Below, in pieces: positions 6,273 to 62,529 of a stretch of DNA of 64,000 nucleotides. Within the stretch, counting starts at the first letter, position 1. The number at the start of each line of letters is the position of its first letter. The notes under the pieces are model-generated. The model had not been told where the DNA came from and did not search any database. It worked only from the letters and a program-made list of their open reading frames with translations. This stretch comes from Patescibacteria group bacterium (lineage in GTDB: Bacteria > Patescibacteriota > Patescibacteriia > UBA1558 > GWA2-36-10): contig JBAYIR010000005.1 in NCBI GenBank assembly GCA_041665505.1, forward strand, positions 225-64,224, given 5' to 3'. A program made the translations under genes and the position numbers.

Positions 6273-6836
6273 ATGAAAGCTTTTAAAATATTTTTATTTA
6301 TATTGTTTTTTCTGCCTCTGCCATCTCAGGCTGTTGGTATTTCTGTCCAGCCATCTTCTATAGATTTATTATCGCCAGACGTAGTTGAAAAAAAACTTAG
6401 TGTCAAAAATATTTCTAAAGAACCAATAGTAGTCCATATTTATGTAGATGATTTTTCGGATAATATAAACATAGAACCAAATGAATTTGAACTTTTACCT
6501 GAGCAAGTGACGTCAGTCAGAATTTCTGGGGATTTTAGTAATTTTTCAGCTGGCACCCAAAAAACCAATATATCAGTTTTGTCTAAGGCTTTAGACAAAA
6601 AAAGTTTTAATGCTATTTCTGGTATCAAAATTCCACTGAGCATTTATATAAATAAAGATTACTTTCAGTGGTCAGGTCCAGCTGTTTTTGTAGTGGTGTT
6701 TTTGGGTGGCCTAATCATTTTTTATCTATTTAGAGTTTTTGTTAGGATTTTTAGTAAGCAAAAAAAGAAAGGCCACTGGTTTTCCATTAATCTATTGGTC
6801 CATCATAAAAAAAAGAGCTGGTATAAATGGCGCTAG
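6273..6836 (+). CDS. Hypothetical secreted protein with C-terminal membrane anchor
   Basis: Signal peptide, a beta-rich middle, one C-terminal TM helix and a basic tail. Tightly linked downstream of the 4492 gene. Confidence 0.55.
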   Translation: MKAFKIFLFILFFLPLPSQAVGISVQPSSIDLLSPDVVEKKLSVKNISKEPIVVHIYVDDFSDNINIEPNEFELLPEQVTSVRISGDFSNFSAGTQKTNISVLSKALDKKSFNAISGIKIPLSIYINKDYFQWSGPAVFVVVFLGGLIIFYLFRVFVRIFSKQKKKGHWFSINLLVHHKKKSWYKWR

Positions 6837-12388: not shown

Positions 12389-12506
12389 TATTGTCAAATT
12401 TTTTGGATATTGCTAAAATTAAATAACTTGTGAGCGATGCTTACGAGTGTTGCTCACCTAACGGCGCACCATGTGCGCCAGGCCTCTAGCCGAGGGAGAG
12501 ATTCCT

Positions 12507-12647
12507 ATGAGAATCACCATCCATCCGACGTTGACCGCGCGAAGACGGAAGAACACCGAGCAGGCGACGCAGAAGGCCACGGCGACCAAGAAGGCCGCGA
12601 GGAAGAAGAACGCCAAGAAGGCGACGAGCAGCGAGGCGATCGTCTAG
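12507..12647 (+). CDS. Candidate small basic protein (46 aa) inside island 1
   Basis: SD GGGAGAG 6 nt upstream of ATG 12507 and ~89% GC3. The overlapping acidic frame 12437..12727 has ~50% GC3 and is probably not coding. Terminator hairpin 12676-12696 plus T-run follows. Confidence 0.35.
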   Translation: MRITIHPTLTARRRKNTEQATQKATATKKAARKKNAKKATSSEAIV

Positions 12648-12955
12648 GAGACGACTTCTCCGATGATGACGAGGGGCCCCCGGACACTACGGGGGCTCTA
12701 CTTTTTTTACTGCGATTTATTATTTAGTCTTATTTATAAATATTAGTTTGGATTGACTAGTTTTAGCCTCTTTGCTATCCTAAAATCAGCATTTCTCGCA
12801 TAGCTTGTTAGCTCGGTAAGGAGGAAGTCTCAAACAAAGAGCTCTCGAGTTTTCGGGAAATGTAGCCACAAGGCTTAACCAAGGAGGTTTTAACCGATCA
12901 TCACATGCCACTATGAGAGTGGCATTCACTCCGTCATGCATGGAGGTTTGTGGGC

Positions 12956-13480
12956 ATGAAGCCTATTCTTCGGTGGGCATGCCTCAGCGGTGTGCTGGCC
13001 ATTCTGGCTATCTTGACGCCCTGCCAGGGAGCCACCTGCCAGAATGACGAAGCGGTCATCATGACCGCGCTGAATATCGCCAGTTGCGACGGCACGAGCG
13101 CCATCGCTCTGAGCGAAGTCAAGCTGACGGCTAATCCCGCGGATGGGAACGTCGTCAAGGTCACCATCAACCACCTGATGAGCGGACAGACCGTGGCTAC
13201 TGCCGGTGATGCTATTTGGCTCTACTACGCGCCTTCCTACGACGCCCGGCAGTTCAGCGACGCTTACGCGACTACTGTCGTCCTGGACGCCAACATGATC
13301 GCTTCGCCGGCACTCTTCACCTACACGCACACGGCCCGGGGTGCCCTGATGCCCGGCGACCAGCTGGTGGTTCAGCCCACCTACAATACCTCCAATACCT
13401 CGGCCAGCTCGGCCCGTACGTGGAGCTCTGATGCCACGGGCATTGCCGACATTGACATGGGCGGTCAGCAGGCCGCCTAG
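12956..13480 (+). CDS. Secreted Ala/Thr/Ser-rich protein (high-GC codon usage) inside island 1
   Basis: GGAGG 9 nt upstream of ATG 12956, signal peptide MKPILRWACLSGVLAILAILTPCQGA, TAG stop. The 8-bp inverted repeat ATGCCACT/AGTGGCAT at 12905-12925 lies just upstream. Confidence 0.5.
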   Translation: MKPILRWACLSGVLAILAILTPCQGATCQNDEAVIMTALNIASCDGTSAIALSEVKLTANPADGNVVKVTINHLMSGQTVATAGDAIWLYYAPSYDARQFSDAYATTVVLDANMIASPALFTYTHTARGALMPGDQLVVQPTYNTSNTSASSARTWSSDATGIADIDMGGQQAA

Positions 13481-13595
13481 TTCGATCTCCCGGTTCAGAG
13501 GACATACAGATCTGTGAACACCACACCGCTTTCCAAGCGGCAACAGTTGGTTTGTATCCATCTGTAAAGTCCTTCGGGTCAAGAAATGGCCCATT

Positions 13596-13660
13596 CCCGG
13601 CAAGAAGACACTATCTGGTTTCGGCCAGAGAAGACTTCTTGCCGGGTCTTCTTTTTGTCT
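13596..13660 (+). terminator. Intrinsic terminator closing island 1
   Basis: 12-bp perfect stem CCCGGCAAGAAG / CTTCTTGCCGGG followed by TCTTCTTTTTGTCTTG. Confidence 0.7.
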
Positions 13661-15460: not shown

Positions 15461-16090
15461 ATGTTAATATCTTCATTATTTTCAGATCCAACATTATTTT
15501 TAATTACAGTCTTATCTATCATATACGCGCTGACTATTCATGAGTTTTCGCATGCTTTAGTGGCTACTTATTTGGGAGATAACACCGCCAAATACAATGG
15601 GCGCCTTAATCTCAACCCATTATCCCATATGGAGTTTTTTGGTACTTTGATGCTACTTTTTGCTGGTTTTGGTTGGGGGAAACCAGTACCAATTAATCCT
15701 TACAATCTAAGATGGAAAAGATGGGGGAGTGCTTTGGTTGCTTTGGCTGGACCAATATCAAATTTCATTTCCGCCTTTATTTTTGTGACTGTTGTCAATA
15801 TTTTGACCAATTTTATACCAGCTGATAGTTTAGTTTTTGATTTTTTAGTGTATTTAATATTCATCAATTTTATATTAGGGATGTTTAATCTTATTCCCAT
15901 CCCTCCTTTAGATGGTTCTAAAGTACTTTTTGCCGCTTTACCAGCTCGTATGGATGAGTTTAAACGTCAATTTAGCGTTAATGGGCCTTGGATATTATTG
16001 GGTCTTATTTTTCTAGACAATTTTGCTGGGGTAAATATTTTTGGTCGAATCTTTGAATTTTTTATAAATTTGATATATTTATTGTTTTAA
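15461..16090 (+). CDS. Membrane zinc metalloprotease, peptidase M50 (site-2 protease-like) family
   Basis: HEFSHAL (HExxH) motif embedded in a TM helix. Polytopic membrane protein of 209 aa. Confidence 0.6.
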   Translation: MLISSLFSDPTLFLITVLSIIYALTIHEFSHALVATYLGDNTAKYNGRLNLNPLSHMEFFGTLMLLFAGFGWGKPVPINPYNLRWKRWGSALVALAGPISNFISAFIFVTVVNILTNFIPADSLVFDFLVYLIFINFILGMFNLIPIPPLDGSKVLFAALPARMDEFKRQFSVNGPWILLGLIFLDNFAGVNIFGRIFEFFINLIYLLF

Positions 16091-16158
16091 ACCAGCCTAG
16101 CTAGCAGCTAAAAAAGTCAATAAAATAGGGGTTTTTATAGAATATTTGTCATTTACTC

Positions 16159-16186
16159 TTGACAAATTTTTTATTTGTGCTATAGT
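16159..16186 (+). promoter_or_regulatory. Near-consensus sigma70 promoter reading into island 2
   Basis: TTGACA (16159-16164), 16-nt spacer, extended -10 TGcTATAGT (16178-16186). A TGGTGAttTCACCA palindrome sits at the predicted transcription start. Confidence 0.6.
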
Positions 16187-16332
16187 ACACAATCTGGTGA
16201 TTTCACCATCCGTACCATTGACATTACACAGCTTGAAACAGGCTGTAGCATATTCCTCCACTAGGGAGGTATCCGCGCTTCTTGATTTCGGTCAAGAGGC
16301 ATAGTTCATGGCTCAATCATGGAGGTTTTTCC

Positions 16333-16434
16333 ATGCCCAACTGCCGCGGACCCACGCATCGCCGTCTCTCGAGTTTTCACAAGGACAACATCTTCACCAC
16401 CGACCGCGTCGCGGCCGCCAGCCCCCAGGCCTGA
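16333..16434 (+). CDS. Candidate small ORF (33 aa) in island 2
   Basis: GGAGG 8 nt upstream of ATG 16333, ~85% GC3, TGA stop. The overlapping ORF-track frame 16319..16504 has lower GC3. Confidence 0.25.
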   Translation: MPNCRGPTHRRLSSFHKDNIFTTDRVAAASPQA

Positions 16435-16666
16435 CCCGGGCGCCGGCGTCGTGATCGTGCTCCGGGAGAAATCCTGGGGCGTCCATCCACTGTTGGGTAG
16501 ATAAGGAGGCATTCGTCTATGCTTTCCTGGCTTCTGCCCGACGATGACCGTGTTGTCGAAGCCCTCGTCTGGGTCAGACAGCACAGAGTGGACCGCACCG
16601 TAAAGGCCGGTGTATGGACCACGCGTCATCGTTTTCTGACACCTGAACTGACAAGGAGAAACCAAA

Positions 16667-16780
16667 GTGTTCTTCCTCCTACCCGAGTACCGCGGGAAGG
16701 TCGCCGAAGGCGACGACCCTCACGCGGAGCGACGCGGGTTCCGCAGCGTTGTGGACGCTGTATGGGCCCATGATGAGTAG
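16667..16780 (+). CDS. Candidate small ORF (37 aa) in island 2
   Basis: AAGGAGAAACC upstream of GTG 16667, ~75% GC3, TAG stop. A further candidate ATG 16519 is preceded by TAAGGAGG, but its extent is ambiguous. Confidence 0.2.
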   Translation: MFFLLPEYRGKVAEGDDPHAERRGFRSVVDAVWAHDE

Positions 16781-17366
16781 CCTATTGCTGCTCATGAGTT
16801 CAGCCCTGGTTTTTTCCTAGGGAACGTTTGGTGCTTTGCGTCGAGGCCAGACTCGGCCCCTTTCTCTGAGAGGGCGCCGCCGGCGGTACGACGGATTGCT
16901 ACACAGCTAAAGACTTGCGCATCCCTGCGTAGCGCGCGTGCCTACGCTGCACCTGTTTCCTAGCTCGGCCCTCGGGCCCCGATGTCATGCGGACGCTTCC
17001 AGCGCCCGCGCAGACTGGGGCTCGAGGGCCTCTCATCAACACGGCCGCCAGCCGGCCTCCTTCAAGTGTTCCTCGTATTTTTTGATATGAGGTTGTCCCC
17101 GCGGGACATAATTCGCAGGATGCCCGGTGTGGTTCGTGTTGTTCTTCCCCTCGGGGGGCGCCTTCGTTTGCCGACTGCTCAGTAGCAGCCGACAATTCGA
17201 ATGGCGCTTCCCGGGGGCCTATTTTTTTTATTAAAAATTTTTATAAACAGTCCAAATCCTTGACTTTAATATTTTATTATGCTATTTTATTGGGGACTTT
17301 TGTCGCGTAATAATAATTAATTTTACGGACAGAATAGTCGCATTTTTTTATTTTTATTAACAAAAT

Positions 17367-17798
17367 ATGCCAACAGTAAATCAATTATTGAAAAAACCTA
17401 GGAAAAATAAGAAAGCTAAGAGTAGTACTCCAGCTTTACATACTGTTTTAAATAGTTTGAGAAGAAAGAAAAAAGAACTTCCAGAAGGAGCTCCATTTAA
17501 ACGTGGTGTTTGTGTGAAGGTAACTACTAGCACGCCAAAGAAACCAAACTCTGCTTTGCGTAAAATTGCTAGGGTCAGACTTTCCAACGGAATGGAAGTA
17601 ACTGCTTATATTCCCGGAGAAGGACATAATCTACAAGAACACAGTATTGTGCTTATTCGTGGTGGTAGGGTCAAAGATTTACCTGGTGTCCGTTATCATA
17701 TTGTCCGTGGTGTTTATGATACTCAAGGAGTGAACGGTAGAAAACAAGGCCGATCTTTGTATGGTACTAAGAGAGAAAAAGCAGCCAAAAAAAAGTAA
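17367..17798 (+). CDS. rpsL: 30S ribosomal protein S12
   Basis: N-terminus [13 protein letters not shown]..., str operon position, conserved [17 protein letters not shown]-17-TATTTT promoter lies about 17290-17320. Confidence 0.9.
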
Positions 17799-20513: not shown

Positions 20514-20572
20514 GTTTAAAAAAAGAAGTCGCCCGCCACTGCTGCTGCAGGGCGGGCGACGAAAGCGTCAGC

Positions 20573-20803
20573 CTATGTCGGCTGATGAAGCCTCTTTTCC
20601 AGGCTTCGGACGCGAGAACGCGTGATGCCTTTGGTCTTCAGCTGAGACCAGCTCAGAGCACGGTTCTTCAGCGCTCTTTTGATCATCATGATCATGGTAA
20701 AGAGTGTCAGTTCCGTAGGATCTTCATCCTCGAAGATCAACTGAGCCTTAGTGAGGAGCTCCTCGCTGGTCATATTAAAGTCCAGGTTCACAGCTTCGGA
20801 CAT
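20573..20803 (-). CDS. Hypothetical 76-aa protein (high-GC codon usage), island 3 cassette A
   Basis: AAAGGAG 7 nt upstream of ATG (reverse strand), TAG stop. Terminator GTCGCCCGCC...GCGGGCGAC plus T-run lies at 20527-20566 on the reverse strand. Confidence 0.45.
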   Translation of the reverse strand: MSEAVNLDFNMTSEELLTKAQLIFEDEDPTELTLFTMIMMIKRALKNRALSWSQLKTKGITRSRVRSLEKRLHQPT

Positions 20804-20858
20804 CAACTACTCCTTTTCGACTGTTACATCCTTGTGCAGGGGTGAACGAGGCAACATA

Positions 20859-20890
20859 ATAACATATATTTTAAGTTTAGTCAATCCAGC
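20859..20890 (-). repeat. Direct repeat copy 1 (27-nt exact match with copy 2); encodes reverse-strand promoter TTGACT-17-TATTAT
   Basis: Forward-strand ATAACATATATTTTAAGTTTAGTCAAT(C)CAG. Sits 43 nt upstream of the cassette A start. Confidence 0.7.
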
Positions 20891-20971
20891 TCTTAGTAAG
20901 GAGCTAGATTAATATTCAAAGGGGGCGCTTCTGGCGAAGCGCCCCCTCGGTGTCGGCTGACCGATGTCGGA

Positions 20972-21418
20972 TCAGACGAAGAAGTGTATGATCTTGATGT
21001 CCAGACCGTGATGATAATAGTATTCGCCGTTCATGTCGATGCCGACAACCGAGCCATCGGCAATCTTGTCGGGCAGATCCAACTGCATGGTCTTCATCAG
21101 GATTTCATGAGCCAGTTCGCTATGGATGCTGAACATCTTGATCTTCTGGAGAATCTCGAGATGACGATCGTACTCGCTCTGGCAGGTGCCAGCACAGTGG
21201 CCACGGCACTGCTCCGGCGGACAGAGCTCCTGGTGTTCGCGTTCCAGCTCCTTGAGGTCCTGCACGATTCCGTAGAACAAGCCCCATGCTCGTTTGACGT
21301 CTTTACTCGCTTTGATGCCGAGCAGCCGTCGTGGGTCGAGGATCTCCATCTTGGGCCAAGTGACCTTATCCAGATCGATCCCTTGGGCTCGATCGTTGAG
21401 TTCGCTGAGCAGGTTCAT
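20972..21418 (-). CDS. Hypothetical 148-aa Cys-containing protein (CPPEQCRGHCAGTC), island 3 cassette B
   Basis: AGGAGG 6 nt upstream of ATG (reverse strand), TGA stop. Terminator AGGGGGCGCTTCgccaGAAGCGCCCCCT lies at 20920-20950. The 5'UTR carries the 10-bp inverted repeat TAACGGTGTA / TACACCGTTA. Confidence 0.45.
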   Translation of the reverse strand: MNLLSELNDRAQGIDLDKVTWPKMEILDPRRLLGIKASKDVKRAWGLFYGIVQDLKELEREHQELCPPEQCRGHCAGTCQSEYDRHLEILQKIKMFSIHSELAHEILMKTMQLDLPDKIADGSVVGIDMNGEYYYHHGLDIKIIHFFV

Positions 21419-21593
21419 CTTACTCCTCCTGGATTCCCTTGCTAGGGAATGAAATAACGGTGTAACACAAATACCACATTAGTTAGTACACCGTTAGGCT
21501 AACTAATGTTTTTCAAAACACAGAATTAAAGAATATTATTATTCTTCAAGTCTATATTTTAAAATTTATAAACAACATTTCAGATTTATGTTT

Positions 21594-21625
21594 ATAACAT
21601 ATATTTTAAGTTTAGTCAATTCAGT
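21594..21625 (-). repeat. Direct repeat copy 2; reverse-strand promoter TTGACT-17-TATAAA for cassette B
   Basis: ATAACATATATTTTAAGTTTAGTCAAT(T)CAG. 31 of 32 nt identical to copy 1. Confidence 0.7.
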
Positions 21626-61385: not shown

Positions 61386-61452
61386 TTTTTGGGTAAATAA
61401 AGAAGCGCCTCACGGGTGGACTGATGTCCCGCCGCGAGGCGCCCAAGACGAT

Positions 61453-61878
61453 TCATACAACATCGCCGCTGTCTTCATATCGTACGCCATCGCTATCGAG
61501 GCGTACCTCAATGCTGGTGTCAAACACGCTGCAGAGGGTTTGGCACAACTCTACGACTTCTTGGCGATGCATTTCGCCGTTGAATTCAAAGACCCAGTGG
61601 TCTTCGGTAGCACTTCGCCGGCTGTTCTCGAACCAGATGACACCGATGAGCAGGTGCATGTGTTGTCCCAGCAGCAGACGCAGCAGGCCCCGGCGAGGCT
61701 TCTTGGTGGGGTTCCATTTGAGAATCCCCAGTGAATCTTCGGGTGACAGGGGAGCTTTGAGTTTACTCCCGCCACATGATGCCAACTCCCAGCCTTGGTT
61801 CTTGAGCCATCGCCCAACTCGGATCGAGATGTGGACATCTGACACCTTAACTTCAGGAGTGTTCACGTCTAACCTCAC
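61453..61878 (-). CDS. Candidate 141-aa protein in island 4 (GTG start, weak SD)
   Basis: Reverse frame with plausible amino-acid composition, GC3-biased codons and a TGA stop. Other overlapping frames look like high-GC artefacts. Confidence 0.3.
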   Translation of the reverse strand: MRLDVNTPEVKVSDVHISIRVGRWLKNQGWELASCGGSKLKAPLSPEDSLGILKWNPTKKPRRGLLRLLLGQHMHLLIGVIWFENSRRSATEDHWVFEFNGEMHRQEVVELCQTLCSVFDTSIEVRLDSDGVRYEDSGDVV

Positions 61879-61934
61879 TTGCTAGGGGTGTACATTCATT
61901 GCCGCACTACTTTTGTAGTAGTCTTGACCTTGTG

Positions 61935-62489
61935 TCAGGCCAGACCGCGTCGCAGCTTGGCTGCGAAGTCCTTGGCGTAGTCTTCCTTGACCTGGAAGTC
62001 GGCCTGAGCTTCCGGCAGCAGACAGCGGAACTGTCCGATCACGTGCTGCTCCAAGTAGCTCAGCGACTCTTCCACGGTCTTGCCCATCGCCGCCCCACTG
62101 GCGAAGGTCTTGACGATCCAGAAGGTCTCGCCACCCTCCAAGAGGTGGGCATCGTGGACGATGTCGCCTTCGATGGTCAGGATGTCGTCGGGATTGGTGT
62201 CCTTCTGAGAATCCCAGGCAGTCCGGACAATGCGAGCAATGTCGCCCTCGCACACCTGCTGCGAACGCAGGAAAGTGATGGTGGCTTCTTCGCCGCCGGG
62301 CAGATGAATAACGCCATGGAAGTACAGCGCGACCCGGATCAGCTTCAGACTGGCCTCAGGGTAGTTCCGGGTCAGTTTCACGGAGATGTCCCAGATGCGG
62401 TCGATGTGGCACATGTTGTGCATCACGTCTTTGGCTTCGTAGTAGGGAGCTACGAAGTTGGAGACAGAGGAGAGCTTGAGTTTATCCAT
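61935..62489 (-). CDS. Hypothetical 184-aa protein in island 4
   Basis: ATG 62489 with AAAGG 9 nt upstream, TGA stop, GC3-biased. Contains MHNMCHIDRIW...YFHGVIH, His-rich and possibly metal-binding. The ORF-track start at 62558 runs into the promoter. Confidence 0.5.
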   Translation of the reverse strand: MDKLKLSSVSNFVAPYYEAKDVMHNMCHIDRIWDISVKLTRNYPEASLKLIRVALYFHGVIHLPGGEEATITFLRSQQVCEGDIARIVRTAWDSQKDTNPDDILTIEGDIVHDAHLLEGGETFWIVKTFASGAAMGKTVEESLSYLEQHVIGQFRCLLPEAQADFQVKEDYAKDFAAKLRRGLA

Positions 62490-62529
62490 CGTGTGGCCTT
62501 TCGGTTGGGGTACATAGGGCGGACTATAT

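Follow-up and report, generated by a model that had tools for sequence, protein, structure and literature searches.

Island 2 is a GC-rich element inserted between the gene for an M50 protease and rpsL in a 64,000-nucleotide (nt) stretch of contig JBAYIR010000005.1 from a Patescibacteria group bacterium; this whole stretch is referred to below as the window. The element could be shown to be a lineage-specific insertion of deviant composition, equipped with a near-consensus promoter and a terminator of its own. Our preferred reading, to which we give slightly less than an even chance, is that of an accessory cassette resembling the morons of phages and encoding a hybrid RNA, partly coding and partly structured. 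An RNA of ~1.04 kb would be transcribed from ~16192 to ~17229, probably under the control of a regulator acting on an inverted repeat over the -35 box. A 5' hairpin and a 29-bp terminal hairpin would stabilise this RNA, a local hairpin would hold each Shine-Dalgarno (SD) sequence and thereby make the translation of three small hydrophilic peptides conditional, and a large conserved 3' domain would have its own role at the RNA level, e.g. in protein binding or riboregulation.

The window has a GC content of ~33% and harbors four islands of ~1 kb each with 52-59% GC, the second of which is island 2 (GC = 0.59 over 16190-17225 compared with ~0.30-0.38 in its flanks). Exact look-ups of the M50 protease and of RpsL showed that several independent contigs carry these genes too, and the M50 homologues placed the host beside Candidatus Komeilibacteria (Patescibacteria). 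Eight loci of relatives whose M50 is 80-85% identical (L091-L098) have an island-free M50-rpsL spacer of 110-185 nt, compared with 1276 nt in the window; one of these empty spacers (L097) stems from the sample that also yielded the window. Comparison of empty and filled sites set the bounds of the 1.15-kb insertion at ~16092-17240 (plus strand), comprising an AT-rich promoter module, the GC-rich payload and the terminator. Directly after it, at ~17241, the ancestral rpsL promoter TTATAAACA...CCTTGACTTT picks up. Between M50 and rpsL the island was found in four diverged strains, namely the window itself, L006 (~90% identity to the window within the island), L005/L009 (~84%) and strain D (~80% over the first 880 nt), the last of which was obtained by joining L101 to L007 across an 83-nt overlap of 100% identity. 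A first-pass annotation of this DNA had missed that the insertion is confined to one lineage. In the libraries searched, no relative of the payload was detected: blastn of the island against a phage collection (50,697 records) and a plasmid collection gave no match, and neither did three DNA-pattern scans of IMG/VR. Two such scans of a JGI metagenome set were also without a match, a weak negative as the pattern-bearing L002 was missed there too. Island sequence is not repeated elsewhere in the window or in the relatives' loci, where it is single-copy. A scan for rpsL among species-representative genomes reached 76% RpsL identity at best (Magasanikbacteria) and provided no useful relatives.

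At the upstream end of the island a sigma-70-type promoter, TTGACA-16-TGcTATAGT, was located at 16159-16186 (plus strand), consisting of TTGACA (16159-16164), a 16-nt spacer that runs up to the -10 box and contains the TG of an extended -10 element (16178-16179), and TATAGT (16181-16186). It matches the consensus at 11 of 12 positions in addition to the TG, was the best-scoring site in a consensus scan of 15900-17450 and is invariant or near-invariant across the four strains, which agrees with the strong promoter feeding a GC-rich (predicted) transcript in the first-pass annotation. The transcript would start ~6-7 nt past the -10 box and have a 5' untranslated region (UTR) of ~140 nt (16192-16332, plus strand). 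Of the palindromic start site that had been described here, the palindrome TGGTGAttTCACCA is indeed present at 16195-16208; in the other three strains it reads TGGTGATTTTACCA, which is imperfect as DNA. Since TGGTGATTTTACCA still pairs as RNA through G-U, the palindrome appears to behave as a 5'-terminal RNA hairpin and not as a DNA operator. At the downstream end, folding predicts an intrinsic terminator (17148-17229, plus strand) composed of a 29-bp hairpin at 17148-17217 and a T-run at 17222-17229, and the hairpin is invariant between strains except for switches between G-U and A-U. The GC-rich stretch thus closes just before the separate rpsL promoter at 17260-17288, as had been stated previously. 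Its location directly upstream of rpsL, on the same strand, would be that of a cis-regulatory leader of the rpsL-rpsG-fusA operon. This explanation is hardly credible and essentially refuted by the closing 29-bp hairpin and T-run, by the ancestral promoter that rpsL retains downstream and by the absence of the element from the eight close relatives; the earlier suggestion of a leader peptide, as in attenuation, fails on the same three grounds.

The predicted transcript of ~1040 nt divides into 300 nt of open reading frame (ORF) cores and a remainder of ~740 nt, and ~580 nt of it (5' UTR and 3' domain) are without a conserved ORF. This ORF-free RNA, ~55% of the transcript, is conserved and structured to an exceptional degree, which the first-pass annotation had not recognized. 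In the predicted fold of the plus strand, the 5' UTR forms hairpins at 16195-16208, 16228-16246, 16255-16269 and 16277-16300, followed by a hairpin at 16318-16335 that would mask the SD and start codon of the first ORF. The structured spacer between the first and second ORF (16435-16518) takes part in helices at 16406-16458, 16459-16480 and 16481-16502, and all indels in it are of lengths other than multiples of three. The ORF-free 3' domain (16781-17147), in which the majority of indels are likewise not multiples of three, is predicted to contain helices at 16831-16902, 16905-16965 and 16967-17030 (27 bp) and a multibranch element at 17037-17141 with hairpins at 17071-17092 and 17094-17108. 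Folding of the 440-nt 3' domain (16790-17232) gave a z-score of -6.6, none of 100 dinucleotide shuffles being equally stable; the middle and the 5' part gave -2.95 and -2.8, and pieces of equal length from protein-coding GC-rich islands -3.2, -0.75 and -0.24. Identity between strains amounted to 88-100% in 40-nt windows of the 5' UTR, and for the 3' domain (16801-17225) to 91% with L005 and 94% with L006, compared with 72% and 83%, respectively, at the 4-fold sites of M50, rpsL and rpsG that served as a neutral proxy. Nearly all helices were retained in all copies by RNAalifold, and base pairing of the SD cores of all three ORFs is predicted for each strain tested, i.e. the window, L006 and L005. 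A fourth hairpin with CCUCC/GGAGG pairing (16255-16269) is not followed by an ORF.

Because RNAalifold rewards covariation, helices were predicted from the window sequence alone, and the substitutions in the other strains were then scored. Where one side of a pair had changed, pairing persisted in 34 of 62 cases for the plus strand, compared with 8 of 48 for the minus-strand fold (p = 6e-5). Transitions and transversions occurred at a ratio of 83:26 at paired and of 51:53 at unpaired positions (p = 6e-5). The changes at paired sites were balanced between C/T (43) and A/G (40) exchanges, therefore the plus-strand signature is not a product of mutational strand bias. Compensated helices were also observed: CCUCC/GGAGG at 16255-16269 has become CCCCC/GGGGG in strain D, GCACCG/CGGUGU has become GCGCCG/CGGCGU in L006 and GCGUCG/CGACGU in L005 and strain D, and CCUCGUAU/AUAUGAGG has become CCUUGU/ACAAGG in L005. 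Stability, conservation and the G-U signature of the plus strand are thus strong.

No longer ORF with homology that could explain the region was found on either strand. The ORFs of the island had no match in Pfam, NCBIfam, PHROG or PADLOC. The longest of them comprises 119 codons in antisense orientation and was annotated by gene callers on two contigs. A search of 5.8 billion proteins retrieved only its own annotation from the same strain, and no more than 13, 6 and 31 codons are left of it in the other strains. Recoding of TGA, TAG or TAA was considered and rejected, as the longest runs free of stops (137, 226 and 191 codons) were no longer than expected from shuffles. The whole 64-kb window contained no Rfam match at gathering score; at E <= 10 the island produced chance-level matches only (best E = 0.7, far under the gathering scores), and covariance models of OLE, GOLLD, ROOL, HEARO, raiA, RNase P, tmRNA, 6S and group I/II introns did not match. 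ARAGORN reported no tRNA or tmRNA.

Three micro-ORFs lie on the plus strand of the island. ORF1 (16333-16434) has 33 codons and GGAGG 7 nt upstream, ORF2 (16519-16773) starts with ATG behind TAAGGAGG and comprises 84 codons in the window with a conserved core at 16519-16617, and ORF3 (16667-16780) starts with GTG, is preceded by AAGGAGA and has 37 codons. All three had been listed in the first-pass annotation, from which the peptides of 33 (ORF1, exactly) and 37 amino acids (aa; ORF3) were recovered as quoted and the candidate start of ORF2 was verified; the high GC content at third codon positions (GC3) ascribed to all of them applies to ORF1 (0.82) and ORF3 (0.76) and not to the whole 84-codon ORF2 (0.51). 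Six-frame translation yielded 17 ORFs of at least 30 codons, and the three that are led by an SD retain their start and roughly their length in each of the four strains. The small number of other ORFs that survive sit in near-invariant sequence, one of them (16146-16304) beginning upstream of the predicted transcript start, and the long antisense ORFs, like most others, collapse in other strains. In the window, L006, L005 and strain D, ORF1 comprises 33 codons throughout, in strain D as the net result of two in-frame indels (-3/+3). ORF2 comprises 84, 38, 40 and 40 codons, with a common ...VWxQSPSS tail in L005 and strain D, and ORF3 37, 39, 36 and 38 codons with two alternative C-terminal tails. 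For each of the three, the start codon and an SD 5-9 nt upstream are kept in 4/4 strains despite turnover of the surroundings; TAAGGAGG and the ATG of ORF2 persist despite a 4-nt change in the spacer between them, and the SD of ORF3 survives turnover of the sequence upstream of it. The ORF cores (300 nt) contain two alignment indels, one in the ORF2 core and one in ORF3, both of 3 nt, compared with 40 events in the ~740 nt outside the cores, only seven of which are multiples of three (33 not). Frame-specific GC periodicity is coding-like in ORF1, in the first ~30 codons of ORF2 and in ORF3 only, and none was seen past 16790. The earlier view of a transcript with three SD-led micro-ORFs instead of a single gene is thus borne out by frames kept open in four strains and by core indels that are exclusively in-frame.

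Several observations weigh against the hybrid RNA. Transcription of the cassette, the ends of the RNA and translation of the ORFs are all inferred from sequence, and just four variants of the island exist. A covariation test on the minimum free energy (MFE) fold of the whole transcript was null, as 50% of the changed pairs were kept compared with 41-57% for slid partners. With local pairs of high confidence (p >= 0.9) in the four strains, pairing was kept in 44 of 74 changed pairs versus 100 of 211 slid partners (59% vs 47%, p = 0.08), and for two-sided changes the ratio of kept to lost pairs was 10:2 versus 12:10 (p = 0.14), so that classical covariation is suggestive and underpowered at four sequences. 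Constraint on the peptides is weak, with a pooled pN/pS of 1.04 for ORF1, 0.52 for ORF2 and 0.71 for ORF3. When frames were compared, the annotated one had the lowest pN/pS for all three, by a small margin over the off-frames (ORF1 0.83 vs 0.98 and 1.06; ORF2 0.54 vs 0.62 and 0.84; ORF3 0.70 vs 0.88 and 1.11), and the flanking genes exhibited the usual strong third-position excess. Three GGAG-plus-start sites compare with 1.4 expected, and 16% of dinucleotide shuffles of the single sequence contained at least three. The 84-codon ORF2 of the window ends in a frameshifted tail. Finally, relationships among the strains differ between segments of the island, therefore recombination or recent spread could inflate the apparent conservation.

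Part of this would suit the main rival, a pure large noncoding RNA (ncRNA), which we regard as rather unlikely. According to it, the whole ~1 kb would be structured and the ORFs would be by-products of purine/pyrimidine-rich stems in which GGAGG pairs with CCUCC-like strands, stop codons being rare in GC-rich sequence. An SD-plus-start count within chance and a pN/pS of ~1 for ORF1 are what it would lead one to expect, as are base-paired cores of all three SDs in the predicted folds, a CCUCC/GGAGG hairpin at 16255-16269 with no ORF behind it, peptides without homologues and double-compensated pairs within the bodies of ORF2 and ORF3 (16551/16583, 16552/16582, 16597/16611 and 16598/16610). It accounts poorly for starts and ORF lengths that are kept in 4/4 strains at ~20% divergence, for core indels that are all multiples of three when 33 of 40 elsewhere are not, for the -3/+3 pair in strain D, for the collapse of ORFs beyond the invariant stretches or for the GC1/2/3 periodicity of ORF1 and ORF3, which is like that of real GC-rich genes in the other islands. 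Because of indel phase and ORF persistence we disfavor it. The ORFs appear to exceed chance through their preservation in four diverged strains and not through the number of SD-plus-start sites, and we read the frames as maintained for translation, with peptide sequences that would be loosely constrained or diversifying.

The mosaic nature of the island is evident around ORF3 (16692-16800), where the window groups with L005 (0.97) and L006 is distant (0.70); L006 and strain D have a common alternative ORF3 tail (...WTLMNG), though L006 is elsewhere closest to the window. This pattern indicates recombination inside the island. It would also be compatible with decaying foreign DNA, i.e. a GC-rich fragment captured behind a local promoter, with functionless remnants whose conservation stems from recent recombinational spread. 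We consider this improbable because conservation is strongly heterogeneous and not uniformly high (identity in 40-nt windows is 0.61-0.70 in some parts and 0.95-1.00 in others), because a z-score of -6.6, not seen in the other GC-rich islands, is unexpected for random or decaying sequence, and because the substitutions bear a strand-specific G-U pattern and transitions are overrepresented among them at paired positions. Moreover, the promoter, the SDs and the terminator have stayed intact in the four strains. Decay would fit the stretch at 16574-16653, which evolves at or below the neutral proxy, the frameshifted ORF2 tail of the window, and the restriction of the island to one lineage with no homologues in the searches.

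In the first-pass annotation the locus had been likened to a toxin or to the precursor of a ribosomally synthesized and post-translationally modified peptide (RiPP). The mRNAs of hok-type toxins carry a small ORF in a highly structured mRNA with a masked SD, and small SD-led ORFs with masked SDs in a strongly folded mRNA, peptides that evolve fast and variability between strains would all be at home in a type I toxin-antitoxin-like or bacteriocin/RiPP-like small-peptide locus. Such a locus is nevertheless very unlikely. The peptides are hydrophilic, with grand averages of hydropathicity (GRAVY) of -0.78 (ORF1), -0.07 (ORF2) and -0.59 (ORF3), and have no membrane-spanning stretch (highest 15-aa Kyte-Doolittle window <=0.60), which speaks against a toxin. 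The consensus scan of 15900-17450 revealed no promoter-like site on the minus strand, although such a scan can miss one. In or beside the cassette there is no modifying enzyme, transporter or immunity gene and no match to PADLOC, Pfam or NCBIfam, and the neighboring genes (comEC, NDK, L28, M50, rpsL, rpsG, fusA and tuf) are of the housekeeping type, so the RiPP-like interpretation is not supported either. Among 5.8 billion proteins ORF3 retrieved only itself (its own annotation). The only hit of ORF1, to P0122 (E = 1.6e-5), was discarded as an artefact, being one weak 27-residue match to a lysine-rich tandem-repeat protein that had been counted six times. SD or GGA motifs, as in a sponge for ribosomes or CsrA, were not enriched. 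For the hybrid cassette, we infer from the fast evolution of the peptides, the variability between strains and the cassette architecture a conflict-related or host-interaction role; given the fast peptide evolution, the module is probably engaged in a changing interaction (host or phage conflict) and not in housekeeping.

A further feature that had been overlooked in the first-pass annotation is a promoter with a conserved inverted repeat that is common to unrelated payloads at this one site. The perfect repeat ATTTGTCA-N8-TGACAAAT (16144-16167) overlaps the -35 box and is present in every cassette at the M50-rpsL site (window, L006, both L005 copies and L099) but missing from all empty sites, with a chance expectation of 0.03 matches in the window. 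As the empty sites contain no copy of the repeat, simple site-specific integration does not fit. The repeat is a candidate operator, recombination site or both. Within the window, the only other match to TTTGTC-N(8-12)-GACAAA is at 6578-6599, a 9-bp hairpin TTTGTCTAA-GGCT-TTAGACAAA followed by an A-run; with its different architecture it is probably unrelated to the promoter-associated repeat. A homologous promoter module of ~70 nt that includes the repeat precedes two unrelated payloads. One is a mini-cassette of ~230 nt in L005 (L005 4540-4760), located in tandem upstream of island 2, in which the palindrome-bearing promoter occurs a second time along with a terminator of its own and a tiny ORF, MMAFICPH, that is led by an SD. 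The other is a payload of ~400 nt at the M50-rpsL site of L099 (L099 4020-4480; M50 identity 78%), which has no convincing ORF and only an SD-led one of nine codons. Neither payload contains a real ORF; their folding z-scores were -5.3 and -4.6, respectively, and at E <= 10 neither belonged to an Rfam family, a spurious miRNA hit falling on the stretch of L099 equivalent to the rpsL leader. A further relative, P0004 (JGI 3300072015), has an M50-rpsL spacer of 578 nt. Since structured payloads that are unrelated to each other follow a shared promoter module, the site appears to host interchangeable promoter-RNA-terminator cassettes. It is conceivable, and in our estimation unlikely, that the M50-rpsL spacer is a fixed hotspot of a system exchanging RNA genes, here represented by three payloads (island 2, the L005 mini-cassette and L099), and that island 2 would be a new ~1 kb class of ornate RNA acting mainly at the RNA level, with micro-ORFs of secondary importance.

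The remaining islands and the rpsL leader are described for completeness. In island 1 (12400-13660) there are another two GC-rich cassettes, each of which has an AT-rich promoter and a terminator of its own; the first carries a very basic 46-aa ORF (12507-12647, GC3 0.915) and the second a 174-aa ORF (12956-13480) with an N-terminal hydrophobic segment resembling a signal peptide, and neither ORF matched Pfam, PADLOC or PHROGs. Its site between lactamase_B and a response regulator varies between strains: a 40-aa homologue of the basic ORF and a truncated copy of the second gene are present in L005, both are missing from L006, and in L091/L092 there is another ORF, of 106 aa, which likewise begins with a hydrophobic segment. 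Island 3 (20520-21450), downstream of fusA, encodes ORFs of 148 aa (20972-21418) and 77 aa (20573-20806) on the minus strand that belong to no family. Upstream of each of them, on the minus strand, lies an exact 25-nt repeat AACATATATTTTAAGTTTAGTCAAT (20861-20885 and 21596-21620), which looks like a duplicated promoter (TTGACT...), and relatives have unannotated ORFs of 142-191 aa at this position. Island 4 (61400-62500) has minus-strand ORFs of 185 aa (61935-62492; 207 aa from an upstream TTG, to 62558) and 141 aa (61453-61878), the former with H..H/HD-like motifs and weak matches to phrog_3921 (E = 5e-5) and PADLOC QatA (E = 0.04). Taken together, the four islands suggest that accessory cassettes rich in GC and furnished with their own promoters are a general trait of this AT-rich genome. 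The rpsL 5' UTR (17289-17366), which separates promoter and start codon, contains a hairpin leader (GGGGACTTTT and a stem), which recurs in relatives with compensated stems (GTCGCG...ACGGAC in the window, CCCGCGTAGCGGGATCCCGTTTTACGG in L091) and may be a ribosomal-protein leader.

Bacteria of the Candidate Phyla Radiation have tiny genomes, and to our knowledge almost no regulatory RNAs or small proteins have been characterized in them. If the proposal is correct, strain-variable and self-expressed accessory modules sit among the most conserved core genes of these organisms, and an RNA of ~1 kb joins preserved micro-ORFs to a large structured domain, being larger and more complex than known dual-function RNAs. 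The reuse of one promoter/operator module with different RNA payloads would then point to cassette exchange and to a regulator. For RNA discovery pipelines, high GC content in an AT-rich genome is insufficient evidence of a structured RNA, because the GC-rich islands found here are partly protein-coding accessory DNA. Island 2 is well supported and unusual, yet confined to one uncultivated lineage.

Phage morons are independent promoter-gene-terminator units inserted between two genes that are direct neighbors in related genomes (PMC3594210). Island 2 has three of four published moron features, i.e. it is extra DNA, deviates in GC content (59% vs ~33%) and possesses its own promoter and terminator as judged by consensus and folding. 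In contrast to morons it is surrounded by core housekeeping genes on a cellular chromosome and does not reside in a phage or prophage, its payload is mostly structured RNA with micro-ORFs and not an ordinary protein gene, and its promoter module is common to interchangeable payloads at one fixed site. Large structured ncRNAs such as OLE, GOLLD, ROOL, HEARO and raiA were discovered in AT-rich genomes, within intergenic regions that are long and rich in GC (PMC6429828, PMC8723152, PMC11109978). Island 2 resembles them in its genomic setting, its extreme predicted stability and its many conserved helices, and some of those classes also ride on mobile elements; it differs in occurring in four strains of one lineage only, in its conserved ORFs and in lacking an Rfam match. 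The search strategy based on GC-rich intergenic regions (PMC6429828, PMC8723152) would pick up island 2, which belongs to none of the known classes of large RNA. The predicted transcript of island 2 resembles hok-type mRNAs in being highly folded, in having masked ribosome-binding sites and in the length and structure of its 3' part, whereas its peptides are hydrophilic, its ORFs are three in number and the consensus scan showed no promoter for an antisense RNA. In functional terms, island 2 most resembles the dual-function RNAs RNAIII/hld, SgrS/SgrT, SR1/SR1P, AzuCR and VcdRP (reviewed in PMC12612679 and PMC12310071). It is 2-5x longer than these known examples, has three ORFs where they have one, and is related to them neither by sequence nor through Rfam, its own RNA-level activity and ORF translation being predictions from the DNA. 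What it would share with them is the combination, on one predicted transcript, of small ORFs (<50 codons) with extensive conserved structure outside these ORFs.

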